Source: Tubulanus polymorphus (taxonomy: Eukaryota > Animalia > Nemertea). Taken from it: a DNA stretch of 64,000 bases. A program made the position numbers and the translations under genes. The stretch lies in the NCBI RefSeq assembly GCF_964204645.1, contig NC_134036.1:9341859-9405858 (forward strand), in the 5' to 3' direction. Each line of letters starts with the position of its first letter. The stretch's first letter is position 1. Below are positions 1-48,173 of this stretch, piece after piece. The notes under the pieces were generated by a model. That model ran no database searches, was not told the origin of the DNA, and worked only from the letters and a program-made list of their open reading frames with translations.

Positions 1-862
1 ATGTTTAACCCTGATATAGCAACTTTTCCGTTTTGAGCTAAAGATATTGCTGGAGAACTCGTAAATTTTTAGCACCATCTGCTGCGTAGAATCAAATGAA
101 GAACCATTTTCTTAAATTATCTTTTGCATTTAATACATAATCTGGAACTATCTTTTCTTTTGTTGAAGTATTACTTTTCACTATTGCATGAATATAGAAT
201 TCATCATTATATTTTATAGCAAAATCTTTAGGATTATTTACAAGTATTCTATTAACTGCTGATGATTTCATAACATCCAGGATTCTAAATGTTTTATGTG
301 AATAAACTTCTTCACAGAATTTCTTAATTCTTTCTAATAATTTCAAGTCTTGATTGCATAAATACCAACAATATTTATTACCCCAAACATAATTATACAC
401 ACCTGCTGAACCATCTCCCATAAAAAATCCTTTGATAAAATATTCTTTTTCTTCTAATGTTTCGGGTTCTTTATTATAAATATTATCAATTATTTCATCA
501 AATGACATATGATTCATTCTTGGGAAAAATCTTTTATGTAATAATTCATCTCCAATTTTTATATCAGTTGGTTTTATTTCATCGCCATTTCGTTTAATTA
601 AACTATGATCTTCTGTAACATCTACAAACCCTAATTTAGTTCTAACTCTATAGATCTTCTTATTTGTTTTATGCCTAATAATATTCTTTAATTTTTTCCA
701 TCCATTTCTTGTCCAAACATCCATTAAACCATTTATTTATATCAATTCTTTTTCACCATATGAAATATAACATTCATTTTGTTTTGGAATTATTTCTGAA
801 ATTCTTCTTATCAATATTTTATCATTACATTTTAATAATATTGGGGTGTCAGCTGTTACAGA
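1..862 (-). mobile_element. Intein (Hint domain plus LAGLIDADG homing endonuclease) inserted in the PolB catalytic motif FFD|(TDS); C-terminus lies outside the window
   Basis: After FFD (Asp codon 863-865) the frame reads SVTADTPILL (block A). After a frameshift it gives VWTRNGW..IIRH and VDVTEDHSLI (block B TxxH), FIKGFFMGDGS (LAGLIDADG 1) and FFI*FYAADG (LAGLIDADG 2; TGA at 92-94 replaces Gly). Confidence 0.9.
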
Positions 863-3800
863 ATCAAAAAATAATATTTCAATATGCTTTTTCCCAAAAA
901 GCGGTTGTAAAACATTATAATAAAAATCATACATTAATAATTTTGATACTTCTAAAACAGTTGAACCAATGAATATAGGTTTATTAAATTTCATTGACGT
1001 TCTTTTTAATTTTACTGCTGTTAAATAATCTTCAAATCTTTTATTTCCTAAATGTCTAGGACTTGATTGTAAATGTCTTAATCTTTCAGAATTATTTACT
1101 AATTCAATATCATTTCTATTTCTAATATTTTCACATGTTTTACCATAAAAACTATCATTCATTAATTTGAAGAAATCTTTTTCAAAATCTGTTTTTGATA
1201 TGGTTCTCTGTTGAGTATTGAAATCTATATATTTTTCTAACCACTTCGATTGATTAAATTCAATATATCTATGTACTATCTTCAATTTCATTCCTTTTCT
1301 TCAATTTCATTCCTTGTTATAGATAAAATTTTAACATTCTATGATGAACGATATAATTGTATTTATTATTTTGAGTAAGTATTAATTTTTCTGTAAAAAC
1401 ATGATCTTTCGGTTTTATTTTCTTCTGGTATTCACTTAAATAACTATCATCTACGGTTAAATGTTCTCGGCAATAAGGTAAGTTTCTTGTTTTAAACTTT
1501 AAATCTTCAGGATATTCTAAATCAACTACAAAGAAATAACCAATTGGTGCTTCATCTTTTAAACTCGCAATTGCGCTTTCCCAATCAGTTTTATTATCAT
1601 TTTCAACTTCTGTCAATATAAAATGTTTATATGGTTGAGGTTGCATCATTGCCCAACCATATAAATTATTGGCGTCAATATATAATAATCTATATTCATC
1701 ATTTGCTTTAAAATATCTATCTCCCATAACACCACTAATTCCACCTCTAATTGATTTTTCAAATAATAAAACCATGTCTGGTTCTTTTAATAAATCTAAC
1801 TCTACATTTGTGTATTTTAAACCACATTGCCAGGTTAAACCAGGACTAGAGTAGCAATAACAAGGATCAACATTAAAATGATTCAAATTAACTTCTCTAA
1901 ATTTTTCAAATATGTCAGCCAATATCATAACATCTGATTTTAAATATAAATCAACTAATTCACCATGATTTTTCATCTTAAAATGGTTCCAAATATTTAA
2001 TGTTCTATTAAACACTTCATCTTTCACATACTCCTCTTTTAATTGATCATAAAATTGATCTTTTAATAATTCTGTTACATTAAAATCATTGTGTGTTTTA
2101 TAAAATGAATAAGGAATTGCACCTTTATATCTCAATAATTTAAAATCTTGTTCATTTGGATAATAATATCGAGTTATTATAAAATCATTATCAACTAAAC
2201 TTTTTGAGAAATTATCTTATGAACTTGCAAGAAATCTATAAGAATCTAAAAATCTAATGCAACCAAATTGAACTGAAATATAATTTACAGATGTTTTAGC
2301 TAATAGTTTAAAATCATATTTTCTTACATTTACCCCATTCATAGCATTATATTCTTCTATTTCTTGATTAATTGCACACAATTTTCCCGATAATTGTTTT
2401 ATAAATAGATGGGTATCATAACCTGATAAATTATGAAATAATATTGGTACGAAATTTACTTTTTTAGCTTGTAAATTACAATCTTCATGAGCAGCTCCAC
2501 GATATTTTGAATTTAAATGATCATGATCTCTAACTTTTTTATCAAATGAATAAAAACGTTTTTCACAATAACAACAATGAGTTGCATAATTAAAATTCAT
2601 CTTCAATCAATTTCATCTTCTTTTGTCATAACTATTCTTTTATTTTTGTTTAATAATTTTGCAAAATCACTTTCTAATTCAATTATTTTTGTAATAAAAT
2701 CATTAACTACATCTTCACCTCTAAAAGAAATATATTGACTTTCATATAATTCAGGATAATTTGATTTGATGTAAATTCCATAAGCAGCAGCTCTTTGATG
2801 AACTTTTTAAATTGTATTTATAATTGGTGGGTCTTGTATTGTGTCTTCATTTAATTCATTTCCTTTATCCATTGATTTTAATAATTGCTTTTTGTTATAT
2901 ATTTCTTTTCTATCTTGATCAGTTAATTCTTTATTCAACGATTCAAAACCCCCATAAATTAGTAATGGAACAATATTCTTAAATTTATGATTAGTAAATT
3001 TCAATTTATAATCTTTTTCTGTTGGCATTATTAATTTACAAAAATCTTTATTATCACATAATTCTTTATGTTTTAATAATGTATTCTCAGACATAAATTT
3101 AGATAAACATTTTCTACATAGATAAATTTTATGATGATGATCACTTTCTGTTCTAAAGAATAAATCAATTTGTTTTAACCACATATAATGTTCATTTTCA
3201 TCTTTTTTGTAATATAACAAATCTATAGCATTTTCATCATCATAATATTCTGTTAAATCTTATAATCTGTATAATCTTTAATATTTTCACCTTTTTGTCT
3301 TTGGTAATTGCATTAATTCAAATACATTTATTTTTTTAAATTATTAACTTTTTCTATTTTAGGAATCATTTTTATATAGTTACTGAATATTGATCAATTT
3401 TATATAATGTTTCATATTTCTAGTAATTTGTTATTCTAAAACTATGCGTTATATCTTCTGTTGGGTGTAAACAACTAATAATTGACCATAGAAAACATTT
3501 ATTATCTTCATTTTGAACATTTATTACTGCTTTTGTTGTGAATGGTAATTTAATTTAACTCGATGCTTTAATATCCTTTTCTGTAGTACAGTTTGAATCA
3601 TTTTTAAACATTGTTTTACTTTTTGATGTTTTATTCCTTTTTGTATTATAAACATTTAAATCTAAAAATATAATTCCATTCAATGTTAAACCAGAACCCT
3701 CAAAATATCTTTCTTCAATATGACGTTTCAATTCATTAAATATTTTTTCTAACTTCTCTTTTATTTGCGTTTTTGAAATTATTTCTTCAGAGAGTGTTTG

Positions 3801-4442
3801 AATATTATAATCTATTTTCTCTTCTGACTTTAAAAAACTTACTTTCCCAGAGATACTAATTTTTGGATATTCAACATCTGTTATCAAATCTAGTATTGTT
3901 TCTATTATTTCATTAAATTTACTATAATCTTGTATTGTTGTACCTTTAAAAAATCTAAATATAATAGCTGCATGACCAATTTTACTACGTAATGTTCCTA
4001 AAATTTCAATTGTATCTTTTATTTCTAGTGAATCAATATAATTTCTAACATTTTCCATGTAAGGTTTATTTGAAATGGATTTTGTTTTTGAGGTTGGTTT
4101 TTTTTACTTTTGAGGTTTATCATCGAAATAATCTTTTCCTAAAACATTATTACTCAAATTTTGATGGTGTTTTTGTGATTCGAGATGTCTATTATAATTC
4201 CTTTTTACTATAAATTCATTACAAACTTCACATTTTATTTCATCCACATTCATATTTTCTAATCGTTCTTTTCTTTCATTGGAATTTTCTGAAGTTTCAA
4301 AATCTATAACATTTTTTATATGATTTGAAGATTTTTCATGTTTAGATTTATTAGATTTATCGATGTATTTTTTACAATATGGGCAATAATATTGATTTTT
4401 ATTAACATTATTGTTTTCTGGTTGGTGTTCATTCTCCCCCAT
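1..4442 (-). pseudogene. polB: Polinton/Maverick (adintovirus-type) protein-primed DNA polymerase B, broken by stops and frameshifts, intein-containing; runs off the left edge
   Basis: Consecutive minus-strand ORFs give the pPolB motifs in order: N-terminal CxxC..H zinc fingers (4104-4442); INVQNEDNKCFLWSI (~3480-3530); EHYMW plus C2H2 (2807-3220); endonuclease VII-like RDHDH..YRGAAHEDCNL and Exo FHNLSGYD (2217-2606); YLKSDV..F, IRGG, LYIDANNLYGWAM (1317-2135); KLMNDSFYGK and ILFFD (737-1291). Very AT-rich and intronless. Confidence 0.93.
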
Positions 4443-4449
4443 TTATAAG

Positions 4450-5495
4450 GGAAAAAAATTACTTATGGTGATGAGAGCTAGTACTCTCGTACTATGGTAT
4501 GAAAGCCCACTTTTCCAATTACTCAGAGCTTGTCGTCACCGACATGCCGCAGGGCGATATAACCGTAAGTATTCTTTCGTAACCCGGTCGCTCGATTTTC
4601 TCCGCCCGTCGCTATTCGATCGCGTCGCTGGGATTATATAGCCATTTGTTTTCGTTTCGGTCTCCAGATCCTCAACTATCCCGCCGACGAGTCATCGGAA
4701 TACGATAGCGTCTGGATGCCTGCGGCGCAATCGACGGACAAATCCAATACATACGACGACGACCTGTTGCTGTTGCGCAAGTGTCCGCTCGGTGAAATAA
4801 ACGTAAGTATGCCGTGTTACCGTTCGTAAGGCAGGCGGGCGGGCGGGCGGTAATTGTCGTGTCGGTCGATCGAATAACGACGATTGTGCGCGAATTTCTT
4901 TCTTTTCCAGATCTAAACGTATCCATCCTCCAAATCGGACGACGACGACGACGATTTCGTAGCGAACGAAGACGATCTTCGCGCCGCCGATTATACCGAC
5001 TCCGACGACGACGACGCCGAAGACAACAACGATGAAGATTACCACCCGGGATCAGAAGCGGACGCCGACAGCGACGACGAAGACGAAGGCGAGAACGTCG
5101 GCCGAGGTAGCCGCAGCCGCTGCCGCAACCACGAACCCGTTCCTCAGCGGAGAAAGCGGATAAGTACGGCTCAAGTTCGGCAATGCCCGGTATGCGAAAT
5201 CGAGGCCGTGTCCGTTGTGCGGGAAGGATGTCACCAGGCTCGACGTACACCTGACGCGGCCGGGGACGCATGGCTGGGACAAAGTTTAAACTCGCCATGT
5301 GCGGGGACGGCAGCGGCCTGGAACCGTACGTAGAACCCGGTCTATTGGCGAGCGCCCTGCGGGCGTACGGCGAAAGCCAGAAAGATCGCGGTCACGGCCG
5401 TCCTTACACCGACGGTACGATCACGGTTCATTGCACCGGCGTGCGGTTAAAAACGCAGCCCTGAACATTTTCCTTATCGTTATTGTTGAATAATT
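4450..5495 (+). other. CpG/GC-rich island next to polB with a probable degraded spliced ORF (acidic tract plus CxxC/C2H2-like motif), likely a Polinton accessory gene
   Basis: Abrupt AT-to-GC switch at ~4450; acceptors ..TCTCCAG (4668) and TTTTCCAG (4910); donor GTAAGT (4803). One frame reads SDDDDDDFVANEDD..DSDDEDEG..CPVCE; another reads CPLCGKDVTRLDVHLTRPGTH. Confidence 0.45.
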
Positions 5496-14790: not shown

Positions 14791-17700
14791 TTAAATATTC
14801 CAATCTGACTCCCTCTCTTTCAACGAGTTGACAAATTTCATTATCTTCGGATTGACACTCCGTTTCTTCGACTTTTCTGGATTTATGTTCAAGATGCACC
14901 TAAAATAAAATTGGACAGCAAGACGAGTAGTTGAGTAGTGAAGATCACAGTCCTAAGAAGCAACAGAGTATTAGGAACATGGTTTCTTTTTCCCGATTTC
15001 TGGGATCTAACACTGTCATCACTAGGACTAACCTGATGATTTTGATTGACAAGACCGTATGTGAAAGACTGCCACCTAGAAGTTTTGGGCACTGCATCTA
15101 ACCTAACGGGCCAAATGATACAACAAGACACCCAGGGCACTCTGGCCAGCCTGTCTTTTTTCGTGGATGCAATGGATATGTGGTTTCTATGACTATTTAT
15201 TACATTATTGTAGGCTTACCTCTGAAGAAATTCCAGGGTGGTTTTTGTATCTTGACTATACTCGATGTTTAAAACGTAGTGAAGAGCGAACCAACATTCC
15301 ACGGCTTCGTTCCAGCTTTTCACTTCGATTCTCATTAAGCAATCAACAGCTATGAGACAAAAATCTGTGTGAAAGAAATCCTCACCTACAAAGAATTTCA
15401 AAACATGTTAGCAGGAGGAATACATTAAAGACAGCAATTGAATCGCTGCTTTTAGCCACCTTAAACAATGTCTTATTAGGGACAAGCCGATTACCCGTCC
15501 AATGGACGGCTTTCTCGCAGCATGGGGCATTGGTCGTGAGCAGTGATTTTTATCTGACATAAATAGTCTTATTTATCCTGAATACAAATATGTCAATACA
15601 GTCAACCCCCAATATACTGCGCCCATGAACGACTGCAGAACGACTTTGGGTGTATAGAGAGTATGGTGGTATATCGGGGGTGTTTTACTATGTATTTGTA
15701 TAGAGATGTACTTTCAGAAAAATCCTGGTGGTAGGTGGGGTGGCGGTATATTGGGGGTTGACTGTAGGCTGATGAGTAATCATCAATCAATAGTTCCAAC
15801 TTTGGCAAAAGGGTGGCGTGAGTGTGAGAAAGAATTAGAGTTATTCTAATTGACACAACTATTGAAATTTTGCTCCCTAACTTACCAATCACACAAATAA
15901 ATGGATACATGGATATACACCGTCTTTCTCAGCAGCGGTCTTGTTCTGAAAAAAGAAAAAAAAATCAATCATATGTCTCTTAACTGCCCGTGGTTAGTGC
16001 CAGAAAGACTTTCAGCATAAACGACGTTTGATAAACCTTTGATACCCCTTTTCAAGATAATGAACATCAAGGGCAATCCATAAACAAATGATGGTAAAAA
16101 ATGTCCCGTAGTCATTATAATGGGGGTATAATGTACAAGCCTATATTTAAAACTATAATAGAGTACTGTCTGTCACGTGAACTTCATTCATTCATGTAGT
16201 CTCAGTCACAACTTGTATGGACTAAACCATTATTGAAAATAGGGTAAACAGGAATGTCATTGACCTACTGTCTGGGTGATTACACTATGCTTTGTAGGGA
16301 AGGTACGTACGTATGGCCTATGTGTTGTTACTACTTCTCTACAACATCAGCGATCATTACATTGAAATAAACTCAAATGAGAACACTAAAACGTCTTTAG
16401 AGAACAAATTATCAATTTCATTTCACAATTCCTCGGAGGAATTTTTCAGATCTGGGGAAAATAGGACCACTTTTAGCTGGGGAAAAATGTCAGTTTAACG
16501 ATAAAAAGACAGCCACGCGGAAACCCTGATAAAGAACATACAGATAGTTAGACGTTAATAAAGTAAGCATCCCTATATATCGCGTAAAAGCATACACGGA
16601 AGCGGTCTGAAATTGACATTCTTGGAAGTACATCACACTGAGTAAAGTATGCAGTCAAAAATGTTTATTAACTTACCTCATAGACTTTGAACGCATTTTC
16701 GCTTTTTTCACCAAACACAGCCATAAGTAGGGGAATAACACCGTGCACTTGTGGTTCGACACATTTCATTTCATTGCACTGTTTTTCGATCACGGCAATC
16801 CAATCCTCCATTGCAGTGGATTTATTAGCGATTGACTTAACAAACGTCCAAATGCGATTAGCTTTGTTCCTGGCATAGAGCGCCTCATTAAATAAGTCCC
16901 TCGAATTGACCTGCATGAGCGTATCAAAATGGTCCATTAAAACTTCATAACGGAAAAGAAATGGGCATTCATCTACAACTGGCACAACCCCGCCCTGATT
17001 ACGGTTGATACATTTCCTTTGCGATGCGTACGTAGCATTCATAGTCTGCCTAATCGTTTGAAGATCAAATGTATCACCTTTTGAATACAGTTCCTTCAAA
17101 AAAGTTTGTTTATCAGCTTGCGATTCCGCGGTCTCGCTCTCTAGTAAACTGCATTCCCAGTTCACACAGCCATACTTATCAGTAGTATTTTTCTTCGATT
17201 TTCTGTTGCCAGCGTTTTCATCCACACTAGCCCCGGACCTATTGCAATTGACTATTCGCCAATGAATAGCCTTTAAAAGAGATTGAGACCCATCTCCCAA
17301 TGGTCTCCCCTGTAAATCCGTATCTTTTAAACACGGATACCGGCGTGTTACAGCTAACGCGATTCTCCTTAACGAAGGAAAGCCATTGTCGATTTTTTTG
17401 TCCATGATTTCGCTCGCGATTATGTTTTTAACAACTTGAATTGAGACGGATTTAATGTTTGATTACTTTCCAACGATTTACTAATATCTGACGGGAATTT
17501 CGGAATCGGCATCCGAAATTCAAATTCTGGCTCAGAATCCATTGACTCAGTGGACGCCAGCGAAAGTGGTATGGTGGATGATGGTGATAACGGCATAGCT
17601 GATCCTGGTGAAAGTAGTAACGTGGATGCTGGCGACAGCGGTACAGTCGAAACTGGTGAAGAGGGACACGCAGCAACCAGCTGTGTTTCTGCAAAGATAA

Positions 17701-18144
17701 AAAATTTATCAGTGTTCTTACACTTCAGGGCAACTGACAAGATAATATTGTCTTCACATATAAGATATACATCGTGGTAGCTTTATGCTCCTGACTGAGC
17801 TATACAGTGTAAGGAGGTCTATTTTTTAATCCCTATTTTCAAAATCTAAGCTAGCAAATTAACTTAAGCACACATCAGGAATACACTCGTAATACCCTGA
17901 AAATTATGTCAAATGGTCCAGAGACCTTCTTTGTACATCCTTAACAGAATGACTTACCTCTTGGTTTAAGAGAATCTAATAACTTTCTGCGTTTGATCAC
18001 ATGTAAACAGCTTATATCCTCTTCCATCAAATATTTCAAATCATCAACATGTTCAACCCCCATGTCAAAAAGGGATTTTATAAATCCATCATCAACAGTC
18101 CCACAAACTTCCTCTATATACGTCCTGATACTTCTATTGTCCAT
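14791..18144 (-). pseudogene. SAMD3-like (SAM-domain) transposon accessory gene, spliced, in-frame TAA at 17420
   Basis: Exon ~18144-17958 is SAM-like (LFDMGVEHVDDLKYLMEEDI..IKRRKLL); exon ~17688-16676 has YGCVNW and TYASQR..PFLF..HF; exon ~15387-15220 has AVECWFALHYVLNIEY..TLEFLQR; last exon reads CILNINP..SDWNI*. GT-AG boundaries are visible. Confidence 0.75.
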
Positions 18145-18336
18145 TGCTGAACCACCTAGCTGCCTGTTATCAAAATATAAAAAAATCTCATTAATCAATT
18201 GTATTCCATTTTAAGCATTATTGTTTGGGCTCATATTATCTAGAGGGGCCTAAATTTAGAATTCTGAAGTACCAGTTAAGTAAAATATTACAAATTAGAC
18301 CAAGCTTATCTATCATCTTTGAAAAAGCCTACCTAT

Positions 18337-20070
18337 TTATTTATAGAATTTAGCATGTTTCAGTGTCAAATATTTGTCCGCATCTATGTAATATGCAACA
18401 AGAGGTTGGTAGTCAGCAATACTGATGATACTTGTACAGGTATATTCAGATGATTCTTCGTTTATTTTGTAAAGTCCTAAGCCTGGCAGGTAAATCCCCT
18501 TGACTTTCCGCAGTAATAAGAATTTCTCATTTTTCTGTGAAATCACAAACTGTATTATCCCGAAATCAGTTTCATCTAACCCAAATTCCAAAACAACAAT
18601 TGCGTCCTGATGGTATGCTGTATTCCGGTAACTAAGTTTCGATGTCACAAAGCAGTTTGACAGTGAAATGTTATTTTTCTCTTTGTCAAGTATAGCACTT
18701 TTGATTTTATCATTGTACATATCCAATACAAGAGGCATACATTTTTCTTCGGATGATTCAGTAGCCATAAATAGAGACCCTTGCAGAAGATATGCTTGTA
18801 ATAATTCATGTCGTTCTGCAAGTGTTTTCGTGATGTTGATGAAATTTTTAACCTGCCTGACAGCATTTTTAAAGTACTTGTGCTTCTGTTCAAATCTCAT
18901 CGCCCACACGCGCATCAAGGGCCCAAAACACCTTATCAAGTATGGGTAATGCCACAAATAGTGATGTTTTGGTCGAAGTGCAGAATCAGGAAATAACTCA
19001 CGGCGGTCTTTCAAATATTCTGCTATCAAACGTTGTAAAGACAACAACATACCATCAGAGATACAAGGTGCACAAACTAACTCAACAATCTTTCTTAATG
19101 ACAGAATTAGCAACCAAACATTATCATTTTTATCTGAAATTTTTTCTCCAATTAGAAAAGGCAGCTTCCTAAGAAAATTCCATGTCTGAACAGCATGACC
19201 TCCTACTTTCAGGTTCTTTGCATCTAAGGTAGCTGGTCGATCGCGACTATCATAAGATTTGAAAGGAAACTTGTTGATTTTTCTATTCAATTGTTCATAA
19301 GTAAACCATTGTTTGGATGTCACAAAATACTTGATACACAGAGCTAGGTCATAGGTTACGACACCCTCAAAGAGGTCATGACCAAGACAAGGTGGTAATC
19401 TAGGGTCACACACATGGAAATCTGGTATACGGTTAAACGTGCTATTATGCTTTATACCCTCATATGAATCTAGATCTTCATCGACTATTTTTCGTACAGC
19501 ATCATCATAGTGATTTGGAGTTCTAAGTGGGGCATCATTTTTGCCATTTTTGAAGTCATCTATTGTTATAAGAAAGTACCTACAAAAGTAGTGTGCACTG
19601 AAACTTTCCAGAAAGCCACTGTTGTATGGCTACCTAGGTTGTCTCCAACTATATTAACAACACAACCAAACACTTTTTAACATTAACAAGCAAGCCATCA
19701 TTTCGGATTTCACATAGATCAGATATCAAGGTTTCAAATATTTTCTCTGAGCCAAATTCTTTCATATCATTCTCAGTGCACAGCAATACAAGTGGCATTT
19801 GCTCAGTTTTGGACCTGTTCCAAGGATGGAAATTAACAAGTGAAAAATAAACACCTAAAAGTTAGTGTTTCTTCTTAGCCGAGCCAAGAGGATTGACCAC
19901 CTCAAAGCCATCCTGGTACAAAATGATTTTGAATGATGGTTCTAACAGCTCTGAATTTTTATACACACTACCATCACAAATATCAGAATAAACACCATTT
20001 TTTCTTTCTTGTAGAGCATTATTAATCTTATCTCTGACTGACTGGTCAGATAAGAGGGCAATTAATTTAA
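18337..20070 (-). pseudogene. EnSpm/CMC transposase, N-terminally deleted, with a stop at 19862 and frameshifts
   Basis: YSDICDGS..LYQDGFEVVNPLGSAKKKH; GDNLGSH..GFLESFS..FCRY; LPPCLGHDLFEGVV; PKHHYLWHYP..FGPL..WAMRFEQKHKYFK. Confidence 0.9.
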
Positions 20071-23000
20071 GGGGGTTGTTCCATAAAAACTCGTTATGGA
20101 CACATGAATTCGTGCCCCTTGCGTCCTGCTTCCAAAGAACCATCAAACGATTTTGTTCGATGCGGTAGGCTCATGATAATGCCTTTTTTCAATGATGATG
20201 ACGATGTTGATGGTAGTGCGCTTAGCAAAGTGTTAACTTTGAGAGGGACTTCAGCTAATCCCGGTTTATCTCAAGTGATCGAAGATGATGTATTGATAAG
20301 AGAATTTGCTGTCTCAATGTTAGGTAGGCTTGGGACAACAGAGGAGCGTCGATTGAAAGATATTACTAATATACGCTCTAAAGTGCGTGTGATCGGAAGA
20401 TTGCTCTTCAAACTTAATGCTGATGCCAACCACGACATGAGCTTTTATGTTAGTGGAACTAATTTCAACAAAGTTGTGAAAGCTGTGAAATCATTGTCCG
20501 AAGAAGCGGATTCACCACAATTGGCTGTCGAACTTGGAAGTTACGTTAAACATCTGATAATTCTCAAAATAAGCTATGGAATCAAGATGAAAAATGAAAC
20601 CATTTAAAATGATGGTAAAGATTTCGAATACTTGTACATAGCTCATTGGAATAATTCGGTGTCATGTGTTACAAATCGGAGAAAAGGGATCAGAAAGATA
20701 AACAAGAAATCAGTCATACCTTTGACGAATGATCTAATCACATTAAAGACCTGGAGTCTCCAGGAAATGGAGCAATGTATGAAAATAAAATCACCTGATT
20801 CCAAACAATGGACATTCATGGCTCAATTAACACTCGTAAGAATAGCCATGTTTAATAAAAGAAGAGTTTCGGAAGTGGCCGAAATTTAAAGACACGAAAT
20901 AAATGAATGTCAGCAGACAGAAAATCGTGAAATTCTCCAGTCGTTAGATAAAGTAGAGCAGGCCCTAGTGAAAAGGTAAGAATTTACCCAGTAAACTCAG
21001 TATTTCAACATGTCAATTTATGTATAATGCACTTTTTCTTCACAATGATCATCATGGTTCATAGATAAGACCCAAAAAACCTACCAATATGCAGTTTTTG
21101 GTTAGATTTTACTGTGAAATGATTTTGAGAGCCAGATTGGACTAATTTAGCTTCATCAGGCTCGTCAACGGTACATAGTCAAATCTAGCTTAGAAAATTT
21201 TTAACCCTTTTGGTACTCATATCCCAGTGGGCTAGTGCATTGATTTTTAGCCCACTTGGGACTTTAGTCCCAGCGGGCTATTGCGTTCACTTTTCGTCCG
21301 TTCGTTCGTTCGTCCGTCCGTAGACGGAATCCAGTTATTTTCGGAAGACGCTTCAAGGTAATGTCTTGATATTTGGTTTATACATGTATCTACCCTAGAT
21401 ACATCTTCAGCCTAAAAACTGGCCCTGTCAGATTCAAGATGGCTGACTGGCAGCCATTGTTGTTCGCCAAAATCAGCACTTTTTACACATTTTTCAAGTT
21501 TTCGAGCGAAATTTTGAAGACGCTTTTATCAATAACCTTGATCATTCGTATATACTTGTATCCCCGAAGGGCCCATCAGCATGAGAAAAATTGGTTTTTG
21601 TATATGGCCGCCAGGGGGCGTGTAAAAGTAGAATAACTTATTATTTCCGTATTATATTATTACCGGTACCTTGGCATATTTTGTTACCATAATCAATTGC
21701 AAAATTGTAGCTCATGACATTTGCTATGATTGTGGTCAGTTTCAAGGTCATTGGTTTCAGTATAAGGTCACCAGGGGGCGTTGAATATTGAAATTGTTAG
21801 ATTGTTGAGCATTTGAAACCACTTTCCAAGTGGGCATGGTGTCCCTGGACCCCTAGTTTGTTTTTTGTCCATTCTACTATAGACAGAAGCCAGTAATACG
21901 ACAATTCGTTGAAAGGTCTTCAAAACCTCCAACTAGTTATTTCAAGTCGGTCAGAATCGAGATCAGCTATTTTACATATTTTTAAAATTTTTCGAGGGTT
22001 ATTTTGAAGACGCTTCAATCATCTTGATCTTTCACATACATTTAGATCCCCCAGGGCCCATTAGATTGAAAAGATTGGGTCGATGGACACGAAAGTGGAG
22101 ACCAATATTTCTATGAATCACGACTAGTGTTACAGTTTTTATCAGTTCAAGATGAACTTTTGTATGGTCTGTATGCCAAAGCTTTAAATAATATTTTCGG
22201 ATTTGACCTCCACGGGGTGCCCTAGGAGATCGAGGCCACATTTCTATGAATCGCTACCAGTCCTACACTTTTTAGCCACATTTTTGAAGTTTTCGAGGGA
22301 AATTTTGAAAATGTTTTCGATGGCTGTGCTTGTATTTCCTTTAAGATACCCTTAGTGATGGGGCCATTAGATAAATAAAAATAATGAAGTTTACAAAACA
22401 CCCCAGCTATATCAGCCGATAGGCTGCTGATTTCTGCTCCCCACCAGTGTATTGAAGTGAATACAAATTTTCCATTAATTGGTACCTAGGCATATTGGGT
22501 AACCACACGGTCAATTGCAAATTTGTAGCTCAACGCTGTTGTCTGTCTATCTTAGGGGCAGGCGTCCATCCATCAGTTGATACAATAGGTTGGATCTTCG
22601 TGATATTTGGTATATACATGTATCCACTATCGAAATTGTCAATAGTCAAGTATTTTGCCAGTTTCTAAGTCAGTCTTCATGCTGTTTATCTAGTTATGAT
22701 GCTGTGTTTCAATTCCTAGGATGAGCCTATTTGAGGTACGTGGAAAGAGCACCCGTGGTCTTAGGAAGGCATTTATTTTAATGACAACTGATATGGTCGA
22801 TTCCATTGAATACCTTTCAAACACCAACAGTAACAAGTTGAATCCTTACTTGTTTGCCCGGTAAGTTTCTCATGGTTTCTAATGGTATAAAACTCAAAAC
22901 AAGTAGTTTTATATTGTTGGTCTCCCACAATGTTTTTTCATTTTGCTTAAATTCCATAAATCTCTACCACATTTTTAATTCATTGTTGTTTATTTGAACG

Positions 23001-32324: not shown

Positions 32325-35300
32325 TTATTTCGTTTTCTGCTTCTTCGAGATAATATTATGTAGCCTCGTTCGAACCTGAGGCAAAGTTCGGCTACCACCA
32401 AGTTCTTCAACTACTTTTCTCAAGTCTACTGCTGGTGCCATTCGCTTATTATTCAAATAGTTATGCAATATCTTACAAAAAATATCTGTTTCTCCCTTTG
32501 TCCAGGGTGCCCTCTTAATACGTGACTTCTCATCTGAAACAAAATCATATAAAAATGCTACACAAACCATTGCATCAAGACTACTGATAGGTTCTCACAA
32601 TAGGCCCCATTTCCCCTAGGATTGTTATACCGTCCATAAGGTGGTTTAATCACTATGGACCCTATCCATGAACTTACTTTGCGCTTCAGATTGGTTAGTT
32701 TCCATCTTTGGCGGAACTTCTGCATCGACCATGTCATTGTCATCACTGTCATCACTGTTTTCACTGTCTTCACACTCAGTCCACTTATCGGCATAATCCA
32801 AGGATAATGGGAGTGCTAAAACGTTATCAATGAATAAATGCACATGTACACATACACACACACGGGTGACTGCTGTCATAGCAGAGAATACTAAAATATT
32901 TAATCTATCAGTAAAGTCAGACTTACCATCGGGATCAATATCCTCCAATGACTTTCCTTTGAATCTTGCCATAATGCCATTTTCGGCAGCCAATAGCGCC
33001 TTCGCTACCTTCGCTTTTTCAACGAGTGAAGATTGGAGGCAATATACATCTGCGTGAATTTTCACATCGTGCCCCATATGATCAGCCACCATCTTCAACT
33101 CGTTGGGCTTCATAGACAAAATCTGAAGTTATAAACCCAAATACTGGCTTTAGGGCTTTCATCAATTTCAAATCACTTCACAATATAATTTCCATTCACA
33201 AGTATCATTATAGCCGATCATTGATTTATTATAATCATTGCTTGTTATGTCTTTCGAAGACCAGAGCTTTACCTTCTTTATAGATATTCTTGATGAATGA
33301 AGGTTCTATTTTATATTCTTAAAAATTTCATTCACTAATACATACAGGGCTGGAAATTAGGCTTGTATGATAGTACATGTAAAAGCACTTCATGATAAGG
33401 TATGTCCTGATACGGATGTTTTAGGCCTATACAGGATCCGATATCAGCACTTGTCTATTATCACTTGTCATCCTTTTATGATAGGTTTTATATACTGGTT
33501 AACTGAATGTAGAATTGTGGGACATACATAAATAGGAAAAATCACTTCATGGTCAGGTAGTGTCTTGATATGATGGGTTTTATATGTCACTTAACTGGAT
33601 GTAGAATTGTGGGACATACATAAATAGACACTTCATAAATAGGTAGTGTTCTGATATGATGGGTTTAATATGCTATTTTACTGCATGTAGAATTGTAGGA
33701 TATATATATAATGGGAAAATCCTTTCATGATCAAGTACTGTCTAGATGATTACATGACCTTAACGGTCACATGCCCTCTAAATTTCAGTAAGTAATTAAC
33801 CTAATGATTCTTTTGAATATAGATAACACCTGATATCAGGAAGACAGAAAAAAATCCCCCATATACATGTAGTCTTAAATTGTCAGGTTATTAATCAGGT
33901 AATATAAATATACAACATTTATAATTGTAATACTGTGGTTTGTATTTTAAAGAGGTTTGTAATGCTTGCAATAAGACTAATCCTAGTTCATTGGTAAATG
34001 ATAAACCTACTTGTAGTGTAGTTGCAAAGAAAGATCGGAGCTTCGTCGATCTAATTCGTTCAGGTGCATTCAGTCCGGGACACAATTTTGTCATTTCACG
34101 CATTGCAGTACAACCGTCAAGTGGTGTGTCAGCACGTTTCCTAAAATGAATGATGGATTTGCAATGCTTGCACAAAACCTGTCACGATATGAACTAAAAA
34201 AGGTTCAGATTGTATTGCTTTGTAAAGTATATACTGTATACAAAGACATTTTTCTAAAAAATGGCTGCATGGCCTGGTAAGCACTAACTTATTTGATTAT
34301 TCAGCATGTAGATGCCCACGAACAAAACTATATCAGTTGTGATGAGAGATTAAGATTTTTATCAGGACTATTAATCAATTGACATTCAAAAAGGGAATGA
34401 TTGTACCTTAATAATAATAAAATAAACCTTGCATTAATCGAATCCATTCAAGAAACATTCAAAATCCGTATTGCAATTGTTAATGGGTTAATGTTATTTG
34501 AATAGGAAAGTGCAAACACTGTATAAATCAGAAAATAGCATTCTTCCTAGAAAGACCCACATAGCTTTATCTGTGAAACTTTACACTGACATTTCAGATA
34601 GACTTCTATCCATCTTCAGAGTTATATAAAAACTCTTCTAAATCGCTGAAGATGGATAGAAGTAAAATCTATCCAAATTGTCAATGTCAACAGATATACG
34701 TTGTTGAATGTTCTTATTATACACGCTATATACACGTCTTTTATACACGTCTTTTATACATGCTAAATAGAATGCCACAAGTCTAATTGATTTCAGAATT
34801 GATGTTACCTAGCAAAAATGAAGTCACTTGTACTTTGTCTGGTATCGAGGATATGTTCGATAGCTTTAACCATCTTCTCAGTAAGCAGAATGTATACACC
34901 TCGAATACTGCGAGTGCTCTTCCCTCGGATTTCTATTACACGCATTCTACAAAAAACTCTCCAAAATCAACCCAACATATCTTGTAAATTAGATAAGAGC
35001 ATATGACTAAGACAATTTTAAAACAACAATTACCGTTTGACCAAAAGCTGCTCAGCTAGAGACAGTGATTGCAGGATCTCTTGATTCTGATCGGCATCCG
35101 GCACAATATTTTCGAAATCGCTCATGATCATTTCTTCCACTTCTGATATCCGCCTTCGGTTGAAAAGGACTATACGGACAAGAACAGCATAAGCAAGATG
35201 TTTCCACTGTTTTGAAGTAGGCTCATGTATCATCAACGCTTTATCAATTTCAGAGTCGAGCCAATCTTTAAAGACTACTAAGTCATCTGCCACTGGATGT

Positions 35301-36121
35301 GTATTGCCTTGATTGAGTTTCCTAAGTTTAATCCTTCGATTAGCAACACACGAAACAGTATTGTTCCAATGGGCCCGATAAACTACTTCGAAATCTCTTC
35401 CCTCTTCTTGCATAATTTTGTCTCCTTCAAAAATCCCCATGCTCATTTTGAGGACAATGCAATGTTTGATGTAAATCCCCAAATTTATTGCCACACTCGG
35501 GGAATCTTTTTCCAAAGCTAACTTCTTAACACATTTGACTATCTGATGGAAATGTGGCCCTCTCAGGTACGAGGAAAGCGATATCCAGTTTTCTTCGCCA
35601 TTGTTCTCGTTCAGGGCTTTCAGTAGCATACCGAGTAAACGGACCTTTGTTCTCAAGTTTGCTAGGTCTTTTCGGCGCTGCTCCTTTGCAGTGCCTAAAC
35701 GCGAGTACAATGACAAAGCAAATTCACCAATTAATTCGTCTTTTTCGCAAATGCCAGGAATGCCAGGGTTTGCAACTGTTTCTCGCATTCTGCTGAATAT
35801 CAAGTTTAATGCAACCGTATCCTCATCGATTCTTGGTACAAATGGTGATAGCATGTTTCGAGAGGTTCTTATGTAATTGATGTCTGGTTGTTTTGCCATT
35901 GGTTTGAAGTGGCAACGTGTCGCATGCTCGGAAAGGCATCCCTTGTAGAAAAAACCCTTACAAAATTCGCATGGTACGTAGTCCACTGCATTTGGTGGTT
36001 TATCCGTTTTATTGGGTCTACGGACAACGACCAACGTACCATGTCCTTCTTTTATCACTTTACAATTGTGCCGAAAGTTTCCTTCATTCTGAAGTAAGCG
36101 CATATGTTTTTTTTTTTTCAT
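32325..36121 (-). CDS. Tyrosine recombinase and C-terminal Myb/SANT-like domain of element B
   Basis: LFNRRRISEV, IRGKSTR, RSTKLRSF, DHMGHDVKIHADVY (R-K-xxxR-H-Y catalytic set intact); RAPWTKGE..RTLPQVRTRLHN. Confidence 0.92.
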
Positions 36122-39100
36122 TTGGATCGCGTATCAGATGGTACTTTATAATTTCTGGTTCAGACGCGTGAATACTGCACAAATGCGAGGATATTTTCGA
36201 AGTAAACACACGCTTACAATACAAACAATAATCTGCCTTTCGGTAGTCCCGCTTGCCATCTACTGACTGGTATGTCGGAACAGTAACATGTTTCAAATGA
36301 GCCGACAGTCTTGACAGATAATCTCCAAAGTCTTCTTCCTCAATATCGTTATCATTTGGATCAATTTCATGGAGATTATCATCATCACTATCACATAGAT
36401 CGTCATCAGGAATGTAATCATCTTCAGAATCTGATATACATTTTCTTTTTTTCCGCTTTTTTGGAATGTCAACATCAATTGACTGATCTTCAGAGTCAGA
36501 TGAGTCAATTTGCCTTTTTTTCTTTATAATTGCATCCTGTTGTGAAGAGGTTCCAGCTTTCGGTTCAAATACATCTTTTGGCAGTAAAGGGGCAAAATGA
36601 TCCGGATTCCAGTGTCCAGGTTTAAGTTCTGAATGTGTAGTCCACATTACGAGTAAAGGTGCTTGCCTCAATGTGCCAGTCAAATTTTTTCTTGGATTTA
36701 ATATATGGTTCATTATAGGCACACGATTATCCAATAACCCATTAACCGAGGGGTATACTGATCTTATCCTCCTATCAATAACTGTTGCGAGTGCCTGTAT
36801 TGTCAGCATCGAAGAATAACTGTTGTGTATTGCACAAGCAATACATGCATCTGCGAAGGATGGTGAAATCAAATCGAATCCAAATTCGATACTTCGAGTT
36901 TGATAGAAGTCAGAATTCTCAACCATTTCGATACAAGTGCGAACACGAAGTTCAGTTGCTAGATCTTCACACCCACAAAGACCGACTGATACTGCATTGA
37001 ACAAACAGTTACCATCACCAGATACATCTGCAGGCATGAGCACCCCATTTACCATATCACCACATTTCTGCATAATTTCTAATGACCTGCCATGTACCAT
37101 CAGTTTTCTGTCCAAACACTTATACTCAAGTTCCCGTATCCTACTTGCAAAATAGCCAACAGTAGTTTTCAGATTCTCATAGCTTTTCTGTGCACTCAGA
37201 GTGAGCATCTTCAGAATGTTTGAGTAATCAATAGTGGTAGTAGCTGAAGATAAAATAAAAGACATCTATCAAGTGTTAATGAATACCTAGGAAACTACCA
37301 CCAAAACTTAACATGTTTGGTGTTGCAGATCTATTCTTATGAATTTAAATCAAATCTGGTAGACCTAGCCATTTTACATGTACCCAATTCAATACAATCA
37401 AAAGTCAATTTTCCGGCTTCTCAATAAAAATCTTGTCAAAGTTGTATCTAAATCCAATATCTAAAAAACAAATATCCTACTGAACTGAATTTTTGACTTT
37501 TTGACCTCGTAGAAACTGTTGAATTAATATTCACATACATTGATAACATCTTTGCGTTATTTCATGTTATTTTTGAAGGCATCATTGGACTACAAGTTTT
37601 TATCACTCTAACCTCTGTCTAACAATACTTCAATGTTCAATTCCTGCTGGTGCGAATACACAAACTATTTTCCATGAAAATCAATGAAATGACAGAAAAT
37701 TTCATGTGCTTTTTCACTTTGCAATAGATAATAGGTACAAAACTGAATGGTTCCAAAGTAAATTTCAAATTTCCAAAGTAAATTTCAATGTTCAAATTAA
37801 TCCTAGTGGGGAGAACAATATCGGATAATTTCTATTCAACAAAACAAATTCAACATAAATAACAACAACATAAATAACAAGTTAAAATTGTTGGTACCCT
37901 CCTTAAAAAAAAAACCATTCCAACCATGAGCGAGGACTGGTGAGACTAAGATGACTCAAAATTTGCCTGATCCAAACATATCTAAAGATCTAGAAATTGA
38001 GACTACAGATTACAGAGACTACTACAGAGACTACGCCATTTTCCTCTGATTGATCCAATTTTTCCAGTAGTAATAGGCTCTGGGCAGAGATACATATATT
38101 ATATATACCAAACATCAAACAAGTTCTCCATGAAAACTTTTGTTGAACAAATACTGTTGGTCACATATCTTGAATCTGATAAGACCAGTTTTTGAGCTGC
38201 AGTTGTCTCAAAAGTACTAGATACATGTATTAAGACAATCCTTTAAAATATCTCCAAAGCTTCCTAAAATGCTTTGATTCTACCTATGGATGGACAATTG
38301 ACACTAGAACGCAATATGCCTAATACAACTTTAGAACAAGATTTTTCAGTTAATGTGTAAGATTTTTCAGTTAATATGCACCTTTTTAAGGTAGATAAGA
38401 TCATAACGTTCACTTACCGCAGGTTCCCTCCTTGTTTTCATAAAAAAATGGTAATTCTTCATCGCTATCATAGTCATGTGGCAGAAAACCTAAATAGATT
38501 AGTTTCAATTATTTCAATTATCCATACTGGCATAATTTTTCGGCATTGACCCTCCCCCTTAGTATCTACGTGTTAATGACACAAGCTATGCTCAACACTT
38601 TCAACGACCGAAGGATATTTTTTATGAAATAGGGAGTGTAAAGTAATATGGATTGCAATTTATTTTTATATCACAGTTTTTGATGCATTTTAGGACATGT
38701 CTTGTCCACAAAGTATGTGCTCCTTGAAAGACAAAAGTTCGTACAATGTGCTCTAATCCCCACCCACAAAAGAAGGGAAACCACTTTTACATGATTTCAC
38801 TCTCTGAAGACCGATTGCATTTTGACTTTCTTCTCGCAAGGCATTATCTTGCAAGTCGATCGTTTTCCTTACACTCACAAAATATGAATGTTTAGGATGA
38901 ACAAAAACCAGGTTTAAAGGTATAGTACACTTCAAATGTAACGTACTTATTATAGCTTGAGATATCGAAGATTCAAGTAATTCCTCGCCATCTGAAAATT
39001 CTAAAAGTAGAGAAAAGCCAAAACATCTCAAAAACTATTTGAAGAAAATATATATTTCAATTATCAGTGGGTAAGTAGTGTTAGCTAGTCCAATTTTGGG

Positions 39101-42100
39101 AATAAAACAAATTCCAAAGATAACTATATTGGCAGCTCATTGATGTTCAATCATTCAAATAGCTGATTATTGGAAATGTGCATCTTGTGAATAATAAAGC
39201 TATGTAACTATCAGTAACTGCATAAATACGGTAGATATCATCGATACAGCTATTAAATTGTGAACAACTATAACTGCTTATGCAAACAAGTGTTATCTTA
39301 CCAGAACAGGTGGATTCAGAATCATTGTCAACATCACCAGAAGGGCCACATGTCAATGCATCATCTTGAAAAATAAATGATATGGTGACAATTATTGCTG
39401 CATGTTACAAGTTAAAGAATTATGCAATACGTTAATTTACCAGAGCAGGTAAATTCAGAAACTTTCTTTATATCATCACATCAATACATTATCTTGAAAA
39501 TCAAATGACAGATATAATGATACAGCAACCTGACAATTATTGCAACATAACATAAGTAAAGCATGCAATGGTGATATAATGTATTAGATTATAATGTAAC
39601 ATAGAATTGTGATGCATAAAATTGTTCAAATTCTTCATGAACAGGAAAGGTCTATTTCAACTTGTTTGAAAAGGATATTGGGTTTGGGATAGTGTCCTGA
39701 TATGGGATTTATATGCTGAATGTAGAATTGTAAGATATGCATAGGTAGTAAAATCACTTCATCATTAGGCAGTATCCAGATATTGTGGGTTTTATATGCC
39801 ACCTAACTGAATGTAGAATTGTAGGACATATATGAATAGTAAAATCACTTCATCATTAGAGAGTGTCCCAATATGAAGGGTTTTATATGCCACCTAACTG
39901 AATGTAGAATTGTAGGACATATATAGACAGTAAAATCACTTCACAATTAGGTAGTGACCAGATATGATGGGTTATATATACTACTTAACCAAGTACAGAA
40001 TTGTAGGACATACATAAATAGTAAAATTATTTAATGATTAGATAGTGTCCTGATGTGAATGGTTTTATATGCCACTTAAGTAAATGGAGAATTGTAGGAC
40101 ATATGGTGAATCTTTTCTCATTAAGGTAGGATAGGTTTTATATGCCCCTTTACTAAATATAGAACTTTTAACACATATGAATAGAGAAATAGAGTTTATT
40201 TACCAGAAACTGTGAATTCAGAAATTTTCTTTTCACCAGAACACTCACGAATCAATGAAATATCTGTAAAATAAAATGACAGATACAATGATACAGCAAC
40301 CTGTTGACCACTATAACTGCATTATACAAGCTAAAAAGTTACATAATGAGTAAACTTACCAGAACACGTGAATTCAGAAACTTGTTTTGAATCATCACTG
40401 GAACATTTACTCGTCAATACATTATCTAGAAAATCAAATGACGGATACAATGATACAGCAACCTGTTGACCACTATTACTGCATTATACAAGCTAAAAAG
40501 TTACATAATGAGTAAACTTACCAGAACACGTGAATTCAGAAACTTGTTTTGAATCATCACTGGAACATTTACTCGTCAATTCATTATCTAGAAAATCTAA
40601 TGACGGATACAATGATACAGCAACCTGATGACCACTTTTACTGCATTATTCAAGCTAAAACGTTACATAATGAGTAAACTTACCAGAACACGTGAATTCA
40701 GAAACTTGTTTTGAATCATCACTGGAACATTTACTCGTCAATACATTATCTAGAAAATCAAATGACGGATACAATGATACAGCAACCTGCTGACCACTAT
40801 TACTGCATTATACAAGCTAAAAAGTTACATAATGAGTAAACTTACCAGAACACGTGAATTCAGAAACTTGTTTTGAATCATCACTGGAACATTTACTCGT
40901 CAATACATTATCTAGAAAATCAAATGACGGATACAATGATACAGCAACCTGTTGACCACTATTACTGCATTATACAAGCTAAAAAGTTACATAATGAGTA
41001 AACTTACCAGAACACGTGAATTCAGAAACTTGTTTTGAATCATCACTGGAACATTTACTCGTCAATACATTATCTAGAAAATCAAATGACGGATACAATG
41101 ATACAGCAACCTGTTGACCACTATTACTGCATTATACAAGCTAAAAAGTTACATAATGAGTAAACTTACCAGAACACGTGAATTCAGAAACTTGTTTTGA
41201 ATCATCACTGGAACATTTACTCGTCAATTCATTATCTAGAAAATCTAATGACGGATACAATGATACAGCAACCTGATGACCACTTTTACTGCATTATTCA
41301 AGCTAAAACGTTACATAATGAGTAAACTTACCAGAACACGTGAATTCAGAAACTTGTTTTGAATCATCACTGGAACATTTACTCGTCAATACATTATCTA
41401 GAAAATCAAATGACGGATACAATGATACAGCAACCTGCTGACCACTATTACTGCATTATACAAGCTAAAAAGTTACATAATGAGTAAACTTACCAGAACA
41501 CGTGAATTCAGAAACTTGTTTTGAATCATCACTGGAACATTTACTCGTCAATACATTATCTAGAAAATCAAATGACGGATACAATGATACAGCAACCTGT
41601 TGACCACTATTACTGCATTATACAAGCTAAAAAGTTACATAATGAGTAAACTTACCAGAACACGTGAATTCAGAAACTTGTTTTGAATCATCACTGGAAC
41701 ATTTACTCGTCAATTCATTATCTAGAAAATCTAATGACGGATACAATGATACAGCAACCTGTTGACCACTTTTACTGCATTATTCAAGCTAAAACGTTAC
41801 ATAATGAGTAAACTTACCAGAACACGTGAATTCAGAAACTTGTTTTGAATCATCACTGGAACATTTACTCGTCAATACATTATCTAGAAAATCAAATGAC
41901 GGATACAATGATACAGCAACCTGCTGACAACTATTACTGCATTATACAAGCTAAAAAGTTACATAATGAGTAAACTTACCAGAACACGTGAATTCAGAAA
42001 CTTGTTTTGAATCATCACTGGAACATTTACTCGTCAATACATTATCTAGAAAATCAAATGACGGATACAATGATACAGCAACCTGCTGACCACTATTACT

Positions 42101-48100: not shown

Positions 48101-48173
48101 ATGCCTCTTCTGGATCTTTGCCAAATTTAATAAATTCAAGAGCCACCTGACTTGGTGTCATGCGTCTCGGCAT
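32325..48173 (-). CDS. Predicted ~1620-aa SET, repeat array, OTU (vertnin-like), C2H2, tyrosine recombinase, Myb-like fusion protein. Exons: 48173-48071, 45888-45747, 45558-45366, 44613-44583, 43021-42950, sixteen 66-nt exons (42855-42790 down to 40425-40360), 40263-40204, 39364-39302, 38991-38947, 38489-38418, 37243-35034, 34946-34809, 34140-34011, 33122-32927, 32815-32678, 32533-32325
   Basis: All junctions are GT-AG with compatible phases. The summed length (4857 nt) is a multiple of 3 after removing one base from the T12 run at 36107-36118. Domain motifs are listed in the sub-features. Joining the SET exons to the YR exons in one transcript is inferred. Confidence 0.72.
33380..33745 (-). 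repeat. Diverged inverted copies of the 91-bp satellite unit in a YR intron
   Basis: ACTGAATGTAGAATTGTGGGACATACATAAATAG..AATCACTTCAT is the reverse complement of the 50.4-53.5 kb unit. Confidence 0.8.
36620..37060 (-). CDS. OTU-like cysteine protease domain (vertnin-like) within the element B gene
   Basis: VSGDGNCLFNAVS (catalytic Cys), ELRVRTCIEM, IQALATVIDRRIRSVYP, WNPDHFAPLL (catalytic His). Confidence 0.88.
39690..40185 (-). repeat. About 5 inverted copies of the 91-bp satellite unit in an intron next to the exon array
   Basis: Repeated TTTTATATGCCACCTAACTGAATGTAGAATTGTAGGACATATAT..GTAAAATCACTTCA. Confidence 0.85.
40351..42940 (-). repeat. 162-bp tandem array, 16 near-identical units; each unit is a 66-nt phase-1 exon plus a 96-nt intron
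   Basis: TAAACTTACC recurs every 162 bp from 40351 to 42781. The minus strand reads TTTTCTAG|66 nt|GTAAGT, encoding DNVLTSKCSSDDSKQVSEFTCS. Confidence 0.93.
45366..48173 (-). CDS. SET domain (KMT5A/PR-Set7-like) exons of element B
   Basis: MPRRMTPSQVAL..IG|YGLFTKKAVCRGDFLVEYRG..YVFEF..CIDAS..LGRLINDG..NC..PHIAFFAIKDI..ELRYDYG..WW. Confidence 0.9.
45950..47925 (-). mobile_element. Two inverted, diverged HINE copies (~45950-46530 and ~46590-47925) in the first SET intron
   Basis: Reverse complements of the 21244 element: CTAGGGTCCAGGGACACCATGCCCA (45951), CTAGTGGTCCAGGGACACCACGCCCA (46591), GTCCCAAGTGGGCTAAA (47910-47926). Confidence 0.7.
46848..47130. mobile_element. MITE (PIF/Harbinger-like) nested in a HINE
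   Basis: TIRs GGGCCGATTCTTTTATGCAGT / ACTGCATAAAAGAATCGGCCC. Confidence 0.7.

Follow-up and report, generated by a model that had tools for sequence, protein, structure and literature searches.

A LAGLIDADG intein of the giant-virus pol-c family in a Polinton-type DNA polymerase of a very probably animal genome

The interrupted polymerase at the left edge of the window

We analyzed 64,000 nucleotides of contig NC_134036.1 (positions 9,341,859 to 9,405,858 of the forward strand), referred to below in their entirety as the window. The left edge holds a decayed gene for a protein-primed DNA polymerase of family B (pPolB) of the Polinton type, interrupted by an intein. A preliminary description, made from the letters alone, had proposed such an intein and derived it from a giant virus. 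The features concerned, all on the minus strand, are listed in window positions:

1 to 862, running past the window edge: intein with the Hint N-terminal part and a two-motif LAGLIDADG endonuclease (from motifs and profiles)
842 to 862: block A SVTADTP, beginning with Ser1; common to six intact pPolB inteins and mimivirus
605 to 619: block B VTEDH, with its Thr and His (motif reading and relatives)
410 to 439: first LAGLIDADG helix, FIKGFFMGDG (motif reading and relatives)
74 to 106: second LAGLIDADG helix, with FYAADG at 91-74, split by a stop at 92-94
863 to 865: first catalytic Asp of motif C, the insertion point being directly after it (DNA alignments to intein-free loci)
863 to 4442: N-extein of the pPolB in pieces (N-terminal zinc fingers, endonuclease VII-like insert, exonuclease, motifs A and B)
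2469 to 2582: endonuclease VII-like (HNH-type) insert of the pPolB, unrelated to the intein (PF02945, E 0.018, below cut-off)
4493 to 4523: probable element terminus, AGT.. inward, at a distance of 81 bases from where the polymerase starts; matched in alignment by the sequence preceding the pPolB of metagenome locus L087

The minus-strand frame from 1300 codes for polymerase motif B and then reads ..LMYDFYYNVLQPLFGKKHIEILFFD, the motif C Asp codon lying at 865-863. HIEILFFD is joined directly, with no break between, to SVTADTPILL, which starts at 862. Four intein-free metagenome loci could be aligned with the window DNA over 3.4-3.6 kb: L087 (79.8% identity, 3608 columns), L084 (73.9%), and L085 and L083 (71.7%). 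The alignments of L083, L085 and L087 stop at 863 and that of L084 at 859, and in these loci motif C is uninterrupted (D-T-D). The proteins closest by extein, P0141-P0143 (71-72% identity), read HIEIMYFD-TDS without an insert. Since the intein-free relatives align up to 863 and read D-TDS there, the insert separates the two catalytic Asp residues of motif C. This D|TDS insertion point is the one named pol-c. A Hedgehog-type Hint domain was ruled out, as the insert has an endonuclease and splits motif C.

The polymerase was identified from its pieces. Piece 1320-2216 matched PF03175, the protein-primed PolB family, above cut-off (E 1.3e-9), and none of the pieces matched PF00136, the RNA-primed PolB family. 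The window extein groups with pPolBs at about 71-73%, and a profile built from this group gave the mimivirus extein no score. The extein was therefore borne out as a pPolB of the Polinton type, as first described, rather than an RNA-primed PolB, and a giant-virus origin of the extein itself was rejected. Other matches include zf-U1 (E 3e-5); the endonuclease VII-like insert reaches the PF02945 cut-off in two relatives, locus L082 and protein P0399. An N-terminal OTU domain is described for adintovirus PolB in PMC8502044; the window polymerase pieces gave no Pfam match to OTU, with no profile-profile or fold test made.

The intein aligns to residues 1-286 of the 354-residue intein of an intact relative, P0002, with 61-66% identity. 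About 68 of its some 350 residues, blocks F and G among them, lie to the left of base 1, which is why its end and the following TDS cannot be read in this copy. The TIGR01445 profile (intein_Nterm) was matched at 30.1 bits against a cut-off of 24.5, and the Pfam profile Intein_splicing was matched weakly (E 5.7e-4), below its family cut-off. Two LAGLIDADG helices with an acidic catalytic residue are present, and LAGLIDADG_3 was found above cut-off in five relatives, through the part covering the second helix. Overall, sequence comparison confirmed the segment from 862 to beyond the window edge as a LAGLIDADG intein at motif C (D|TDS) of a Polinton-type pPolB. Two stops (737-739 and 92-94) and a change of frame near 68 interrupt the intein; in the polymerase, whose start is at 4442, more stops occur and the frame changes at least three times. 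With these stops and frameshifts the window copy of both is dead.

Polintons (Mavericks) are characterized by terminal inverted repeats, ends that begin with AGT and a 6-bp target duplication. Beyond the putative terminus at 4523 the content of G and C rises from 0.235 to 0.405 and the read depth is about 20-fold lower. No integrase or virion genes were found within the 64-kb window, the rest of the element lying to the left of base 1. An integrase (rve) is present in the intein-free nearest relative L083, and the more distant L097 has an integrase, an A32 ATPase, a C5 protease and a double jelly-roll capsid protein.

Intact relatives and the origin of the intein

Intact and intein-free relatives, the existence of which had been left to be checked, were both found among proteins and metagenome loci. 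A protein search with the window intein gave 512 passing matches; four of the 120 listed are pPolBs with a full intein, namely P0002 (63% identity to the window intein), P0003 (48%), P0004 (47%) and P0006 (47%). The remaining 116 carry PF00136, mimivirus among them. Searching with the P0006 intein added P0399 and P0404 (five pPolBs among the 120 listed of 1466), and a metagenome scan added L082, a pPolB with intein that is near-intact and has two stops. The inteins of the six intact proteins are 337-354 residues long, have the form D|S...N|TDS and retain VTEDH together with the two endonuclease helices. All six, and L082 as well, also have the block F Asp, the terminal Asn and the +1 Thr. The intact inteins end with (H/K/S)N before TDS, and the polymerase C-terminus follows; the ending anticipated for the window copy was thus read in its relatives. 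Three of them have SN or KN and so lack the penultimate His. The residues kept match those of class 1 inteins as defined in PMC7765530, and the intact pPolB inteins would be expected to splice by the class 1 route, with Ser1, the Thr/His pair of block B, the Asp of block F, the terminal Asn and Thr+1. A structural model of P0004 is of low confidence (6 rows, pLDDT 47.6) and serves for the fold class only; Foldseek placed endonuclease-bearing inteins first (TliVMA at 7e-14, then PI-PfuI and PI-SceI). A sequence search of the PDB gave a single match, PI-PkoII (E 4e-4).

Among pPolBs the intein is rare. Only P0002 and P0003 have it among 120 listed relatives of the P0002 extein, 114 having a contiguous motif and four not covering the site. 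A first metagenome scan with the P0002 query gave 597 pattern matches, none of them confirmed, and a first viral scan gave one weak locus out of seven matches. The best 150 of 1896 matches in a search of 50% representatives included no full-length pPolB and four fragments that best matched pPolB inteins. An Atlas search with residues 900-1537 of P0003 gave only matches under 0.9, which lead towards PolB inteins of Nucleocytoviricota.

The separate intein and extein trees that had been suggested placed the inteins with the giant-virus pol-c family and the extein with pPolBs. In a careful tree of 47 inteins picked from about 240, eight pPolB inteins make up a single, long-stemmed clade (100/99) that falls within a group of RNA-primed PolB inteins comprising 29 rows (92/96). 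They are still nested, in a 25-row group at 98, in a quicker tree of 49 rows rooted with three distant archaeal pol-c inteins. Here the sister of the pPolB clade (SH-aLRT 91) is a set of 11 rows that includes ChoanoV1 and four GVMAG contigs. A shortened block at the C-terminus, FNxG(F/Y/T/S)xLIVxN, is common to this set and every complete pPolB intein; of 210 RNA-primed PolB inteins, 41 have it in the strict GF form. Membership of the giant-virus pol-c family, as originally described, is thereby upheld by both the common site and the nesting. Identities among the first seven pPolB inteins range from 38 to 76%, and the window intein reaches at most about 43% with any RNA-primed PolB intein.

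As the single clade of pPolB inteins is deeply diverged within, the giant-virus step appears to be old, and the nearest donor of the window intein was most likely another Polinton. The original donor to pPolB was likely a giant virus, plausibly from the mimivirus-like subgroup. The proposal that the capture took place in the lineage of this particular virus was accordingly given up. The occurrence is not a one-off either: six other pPolB lineages carry the intein, and the family is multi-copy in the source organism.

Surveys of possible donors gave the following. RNA-primed PolB with intein was found in 79 of 81 viral loci and pPolB in none, and 11 of the first 12 viral-contig matches are named GVMAG. 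Only two weak partial matches were found among 50,697 phage records, so a phage donor is not indicated. Prokaryote genomes gave ten loci, including two in archaeal metagenome-assembled genomes (MAGs) at 39-40% identity, which fall outside the 25-row group and are without the C-terminal signature.

Some neighbouring cases were observed on the way. The two archaeal MAGs, one labelled Promethearchaeota, hold 336-residue pol-c inteins (L162, 760-4749; L163, 700-4698) that are 67% alike and nested among viral ones, and their upstream open reading frames (ORFs) look similar; an exchange between Asgard archaea and giant viruses is possible. Three bacterial MAG contigs (L164, L165 and L166) with giant-virus-like PolB inteins are probably misbinned viral contigs. 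The topoisomerase II-like proteins P0415, P0318 and P0384 also carry members of the same intein family, at sites other than polymerase ones; in P0415 there are two and, in addition, a third intein. Motif C is unusually variable in the intein-free pPolBs P0136-P0253 (YMDCDS in 22 of 118, YIDTDG in 7 and YIDTDA in 6), which is possibly the trace of an old escape from homing.

Copy number, homing and alternative explanations

The pPolB and intein family is multi-copy in the organism from which the window comes. In one study, four runs contained about half of the sampled words from the locus; a second study, under the identical species label, has a raw-read run that also covers the element. In this run (12% read, mapping at 85% likeness) positions 201-1050 had a depth of about 200-310 and the flank at 4601-5400 one of 10-15, which puts the element roughly 20-fold above the flank, provided that the flank is single-copy. 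Depth was even over the intein junction (252 at 801-850, 303 at 851-900 and 251-308 at 901-1050), and loose read ends at 863 were absent from the six strongest piles (at least 38 reads each; 126 further rows lie beyond these). The flat depth and the lack of a top pile at 863 indicate that most close copies carry the intein. At three stops that were checked, 200 of 204, 141 of 144 and 279 of 282 reads disagreed with the window, and these stops are thus private to the window copy. Variants were taken from the rows with the best support, 40 out of 127 and 40 out of 702. Among the sites listed, segregating ones were synonymous in 8 of 11 cases in the intein (binomial p 0.0012 against 0.25) and in 6 of 8 in the extein, and near-fixed differences in 2 of 8. 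These counts point to purifying selection on the intein of the family and to decay of the window copy. Summed contig depths of run X3, which are not copy numbers, and run X5, with a small share in scattered pieces, were excluded. No RNA sequencing run was among those listed as containing the element.

Intein-bearing pPolBs are scattered among intein-free ones. On an extein tree of 48 rows, out of 127 aligned, the six bearers require five changes. Starred branches force every one of them, and the number is not lower than with shuffled labels. The P0006 polymerase gave no BLAST match to the exteins of P0002 or P0003, and on a profile of their group it had no overall score and weak domain matches only. 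Its intein is 44-49% identical to the other pPolB inteins and nested among them. An extein unrelated by BLAST that houses a nested intein implies transfer of the intein between polymerase classes.

A closer comparison was possible within the P0003 cluster, which has 136 members. Fifteen are listed, on contigs of 57 kb to 1.0 Mb: seven have the intein, six are empty and two do not cover the site. The seven filled copies are full-length and their inteins are 95-99.7% alike. Exteins of filled and empty copies are 94-99% identical overall, whereas the 20 residues around the site differ by 40.8%. The difference is 16.9% and then 11.7% in the next two segments downstream, and does not exceed 6.1% beyond the tract of -10 to +50. 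At the site the filled copies are identical, and the empty ones differ from each other by 17.3%, with TDA or CDS replacing TDS. Such a divergence peak is the pattern expected of homing with co-conversion, and the surviving empty alleles would be those that the nuclease does not cut.

Taken together, these data make it probable, in our judgement, that the intein was captured once, long ago, from a giant virus and later spread among Polintons, the window showing the end of a decayed integrated element. The single old capture, from a mimivirus-like giant virus, would have been enabled by motif C, a stretch common to both types of polymerase. In intact copies, self-splicing of the intein would restore an active polymerase. 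The endonuclease part would cut the site wherever it stands empty, and repair would likely copy the intein in. Homing between Polintons, once across polymerase classes, would have followed, and the intein could persist in the nucleus by virtue of a multi-copy family that keeps supplying empty sites. A further-reaching version, about which our doubts slightly outweigh our belief, is that animal germlines carry actively homing inteins of giant-virus origin that sweep multi-copy Polintons, jump between polymerase classes and select for TDA or CDS escape alleles.

Several observations weigh against the favoured explanation. The P0003 comparison was made at the protein level with 13 of the 136 members, and splicing and cutting by the pPolB inteins are predictions. 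With regard to the donor, two rows without the C-terminal signature are the sister group in two quick trees, the careful tree leaves the sister-group fork open, and the approximately unbiased (AU) test does not reject the signature grouping (p 0.393). Most RNA-primed PolB rows carry no taxonomy label, and inteins belonging to this broad family are also present at the two archaeal MAG loci. The signs of an animal host for the window are indirect. The intein tree broadly tracks the extein tree: sister pairs of inteins match extein neighbourhoods (window and P0002, P0003 and P0004, P0399 and P0404), and in most pairs intein and extein show similar percentages of identity (46.2% for the extein and 47.7% for the intein in one case, 67.7% and 62.3% in another). 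This agreement of trees and identities fits long vertical descent with losses, and long residence with losses is part of the history of pPolB inteins. In its pure form, this explanation supposes one entry into the ancestor of the pPolB group, many precise losses and homing that is now rare or absent, and tree change counts are unable to separate gain from loss. We nevertheless regard it as unlikely. No intein is seen in any of the other 118 relatives of P0002 that were listed, of which 114 have an uninterrupted motif and four leave the site uncovered; many exact losses would be required. P0006 requires a transfer even under vertical descent, the inteins of the window and P0002 are 63.5% identical against 56.2% for their exteins, none of the six intact lineages has lost either endonuclease helix, and the P0003-family peak at the insertion site counts against a purely vertical history.

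The remaining explanations fare worse than vertical descent. Recent capture from a giant virus co-infecting with the lineage of the window element is the least probable of all: the nearest non-Polinton relatives of the window intein are indeed giant-virus pol-c inteins, but it is 61-66% identical to a pPolB intein, against at most about 43% for RNA-primed ones, and the single pPolB clade with its long stem largely refutes such an event. It is very improbable that the element lies outside an animal genome, as a contaminant, a chimeric join or part of another eukaryotic host. The terminus is crossed by a single unitig (4497-5076, 0 differences) with only 27 element-side letters against a bar of 31, and its run may be the assembly's own source; yet the element occurs in two studies under one species label, with many variants and at some 20 times the flank depth. 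The composition break coincides with the terminus-like motif common to L087, the copy has decayed in the manner of integrated copies, and the window also contains a spliced KMT5A/SETD8-like gene, satellites and transposons of eukaryotic Atlas clusters. We give equally little credit to the idea that the insert is non-splicing, a defunct nuclease or Hint-like insertion comparable to the HNH and VSR domains of pPolB. The breaks in the window copy would agree with this, as would Intein_splicing falling below cut-off in the window and in four of five relatives scanned and the SN or KN ending of three intact relatives. Against it, the mimivirus intein likewise ends with KN, all other class 1 residues are kept in the intact relatives, and the seven listed P0003-family copies are full-length with closely similar inteins. 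Moreover, an unspliced polymerase should be inactive because the insert separates both catalytic Asp residues.

Published systems and the surrounding genome

The closest known inteins are the pol-c inteins of Nucleocytoviricota (mimivirus P0062, ChoanoV1 P0413 and GVMAG), which share the D|TDS site, the Ser start, VTEDH, two LAGLIDADG helices and a length of about 350 residues at 36-46% identity, one subgroup also having FNxG(F/Y/T/S)xLIVxN. Here, in contrast, the host protein is the pPolB of a small integrating element in a eukaryotic chromosome, and the inteins form their own clade. The element resembles the Polintons/Mavericks and adintoviruses of PMC8502044 in having a PF03175-type pPolB beside an AGT-type end; the word intein is absent from the main text of that paper. 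HNH and VSR insertions in Polinton pPolB (bioRxiv 10.1101/2023.08.22.554363, PMC11071308) are likewise homing-type nucleases inside pPolB. Unlike the window intein they have, as described, no Hint domain, and the window polymerase has its endonuclease VII-like insert in addition to, and apart from, the intein. The main text of the preprint does not contain 'intein', 'LAGLIDADG' or 'homing'. One sentence of PMC11071308 suggests that the nuclease inserts of pPolB stem from intein invasions, and this is the closest printed statement in the available text of PMC12220804, PMC3671162, PMC5718144, PMC13768754, PMC5871332 and the other papers cited here. Endogenous giant-virus PolB inteins of algae and a labyrinthulomycete and the nuclear inteins of Anaeramoeba (PMC10710043) also lie on nuclear scaffolds and have viral donors; those hosts are not animals, and the main text lacks the words 'Polinton', 'animal' and 'metazoa'.

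In surveys (PMC5784728, PMC7765530, PMC10710043) eukaryotic inteins are placed in fungi, protists, plastids and giant viruses, and the published lists name inteins only in microbes, fungi, algae and giant viruses. Subscription papers, Repbase and supplements aside, the literature in its accessible parts contained no intein with Hint and LAGLIDADG parts, either in the polymerase of a Polinton or in the genome of an animal. Judged by sequence, canonical giant-virus-type inteins in Polinton pPolB are thus a small clade not found in print; the sequence files of PMC8502044 and of the pPolB preprint could contain unremarked cases. Full inteins in Polinton polymerases of an animal genome would break the survey rule on eukaryotic inteins. 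Polintons may suit inteins because homing needs empty sites, which a multi-copy element supplies. The clade would be direct sequence evidence for DNA exchange between giant viruses and Polintons and a concrete case for the published guess of intein invasion into pPolB. The filled and empty alleles within one family offer material on homing, co-conversion and escape, and the proteins add to the stock of natural inteins and endonucleases, with function in animal cells being probable. If homing of Polinton inteins is real, it would be a natural protein-level gene drive inside the animal nucleus.

As first described, the host of the element is very probably an animal, to judge by the genomic context. 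The window belongs to a repeat-rich eukaryote with satellites and TA microsatellites. Its other features are:

45366-48178, minus strand: KMT5A/SETD8-like gene with a SET domain, spliced, its exons picked out by eye (about 48178-48072, 45887-45752 and 45560-45366)
32646-37265, minus strand: OTU-domain ORF (PF02338), with a decayed paralogue at 20071-20607, plus strand
16668-19629, minus strand: transposase-like ORFs, Atlas neighbours including Transposase_21 and Plavaka clusters
40233-42962, 39716-40112 and 50351-53468: a 162-bp satellite of about 16 copies and a 91-bp satellite that occurs in both orientations

The best solved-structure matches of the spliced SET gene are KMT5A/SETD8. A transposase-like ORF falls in eukaryotic Atlas clusters in which Arthropoda are commonest. 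The ORFs beside the OTU ORF have no Pfam match and resemble a split tyrosine recombinase. The word TAGGCCTA occurs 10 times in the whole window against 0.35 expected, an excess that is typical of echinoderms and serves as a lead only.

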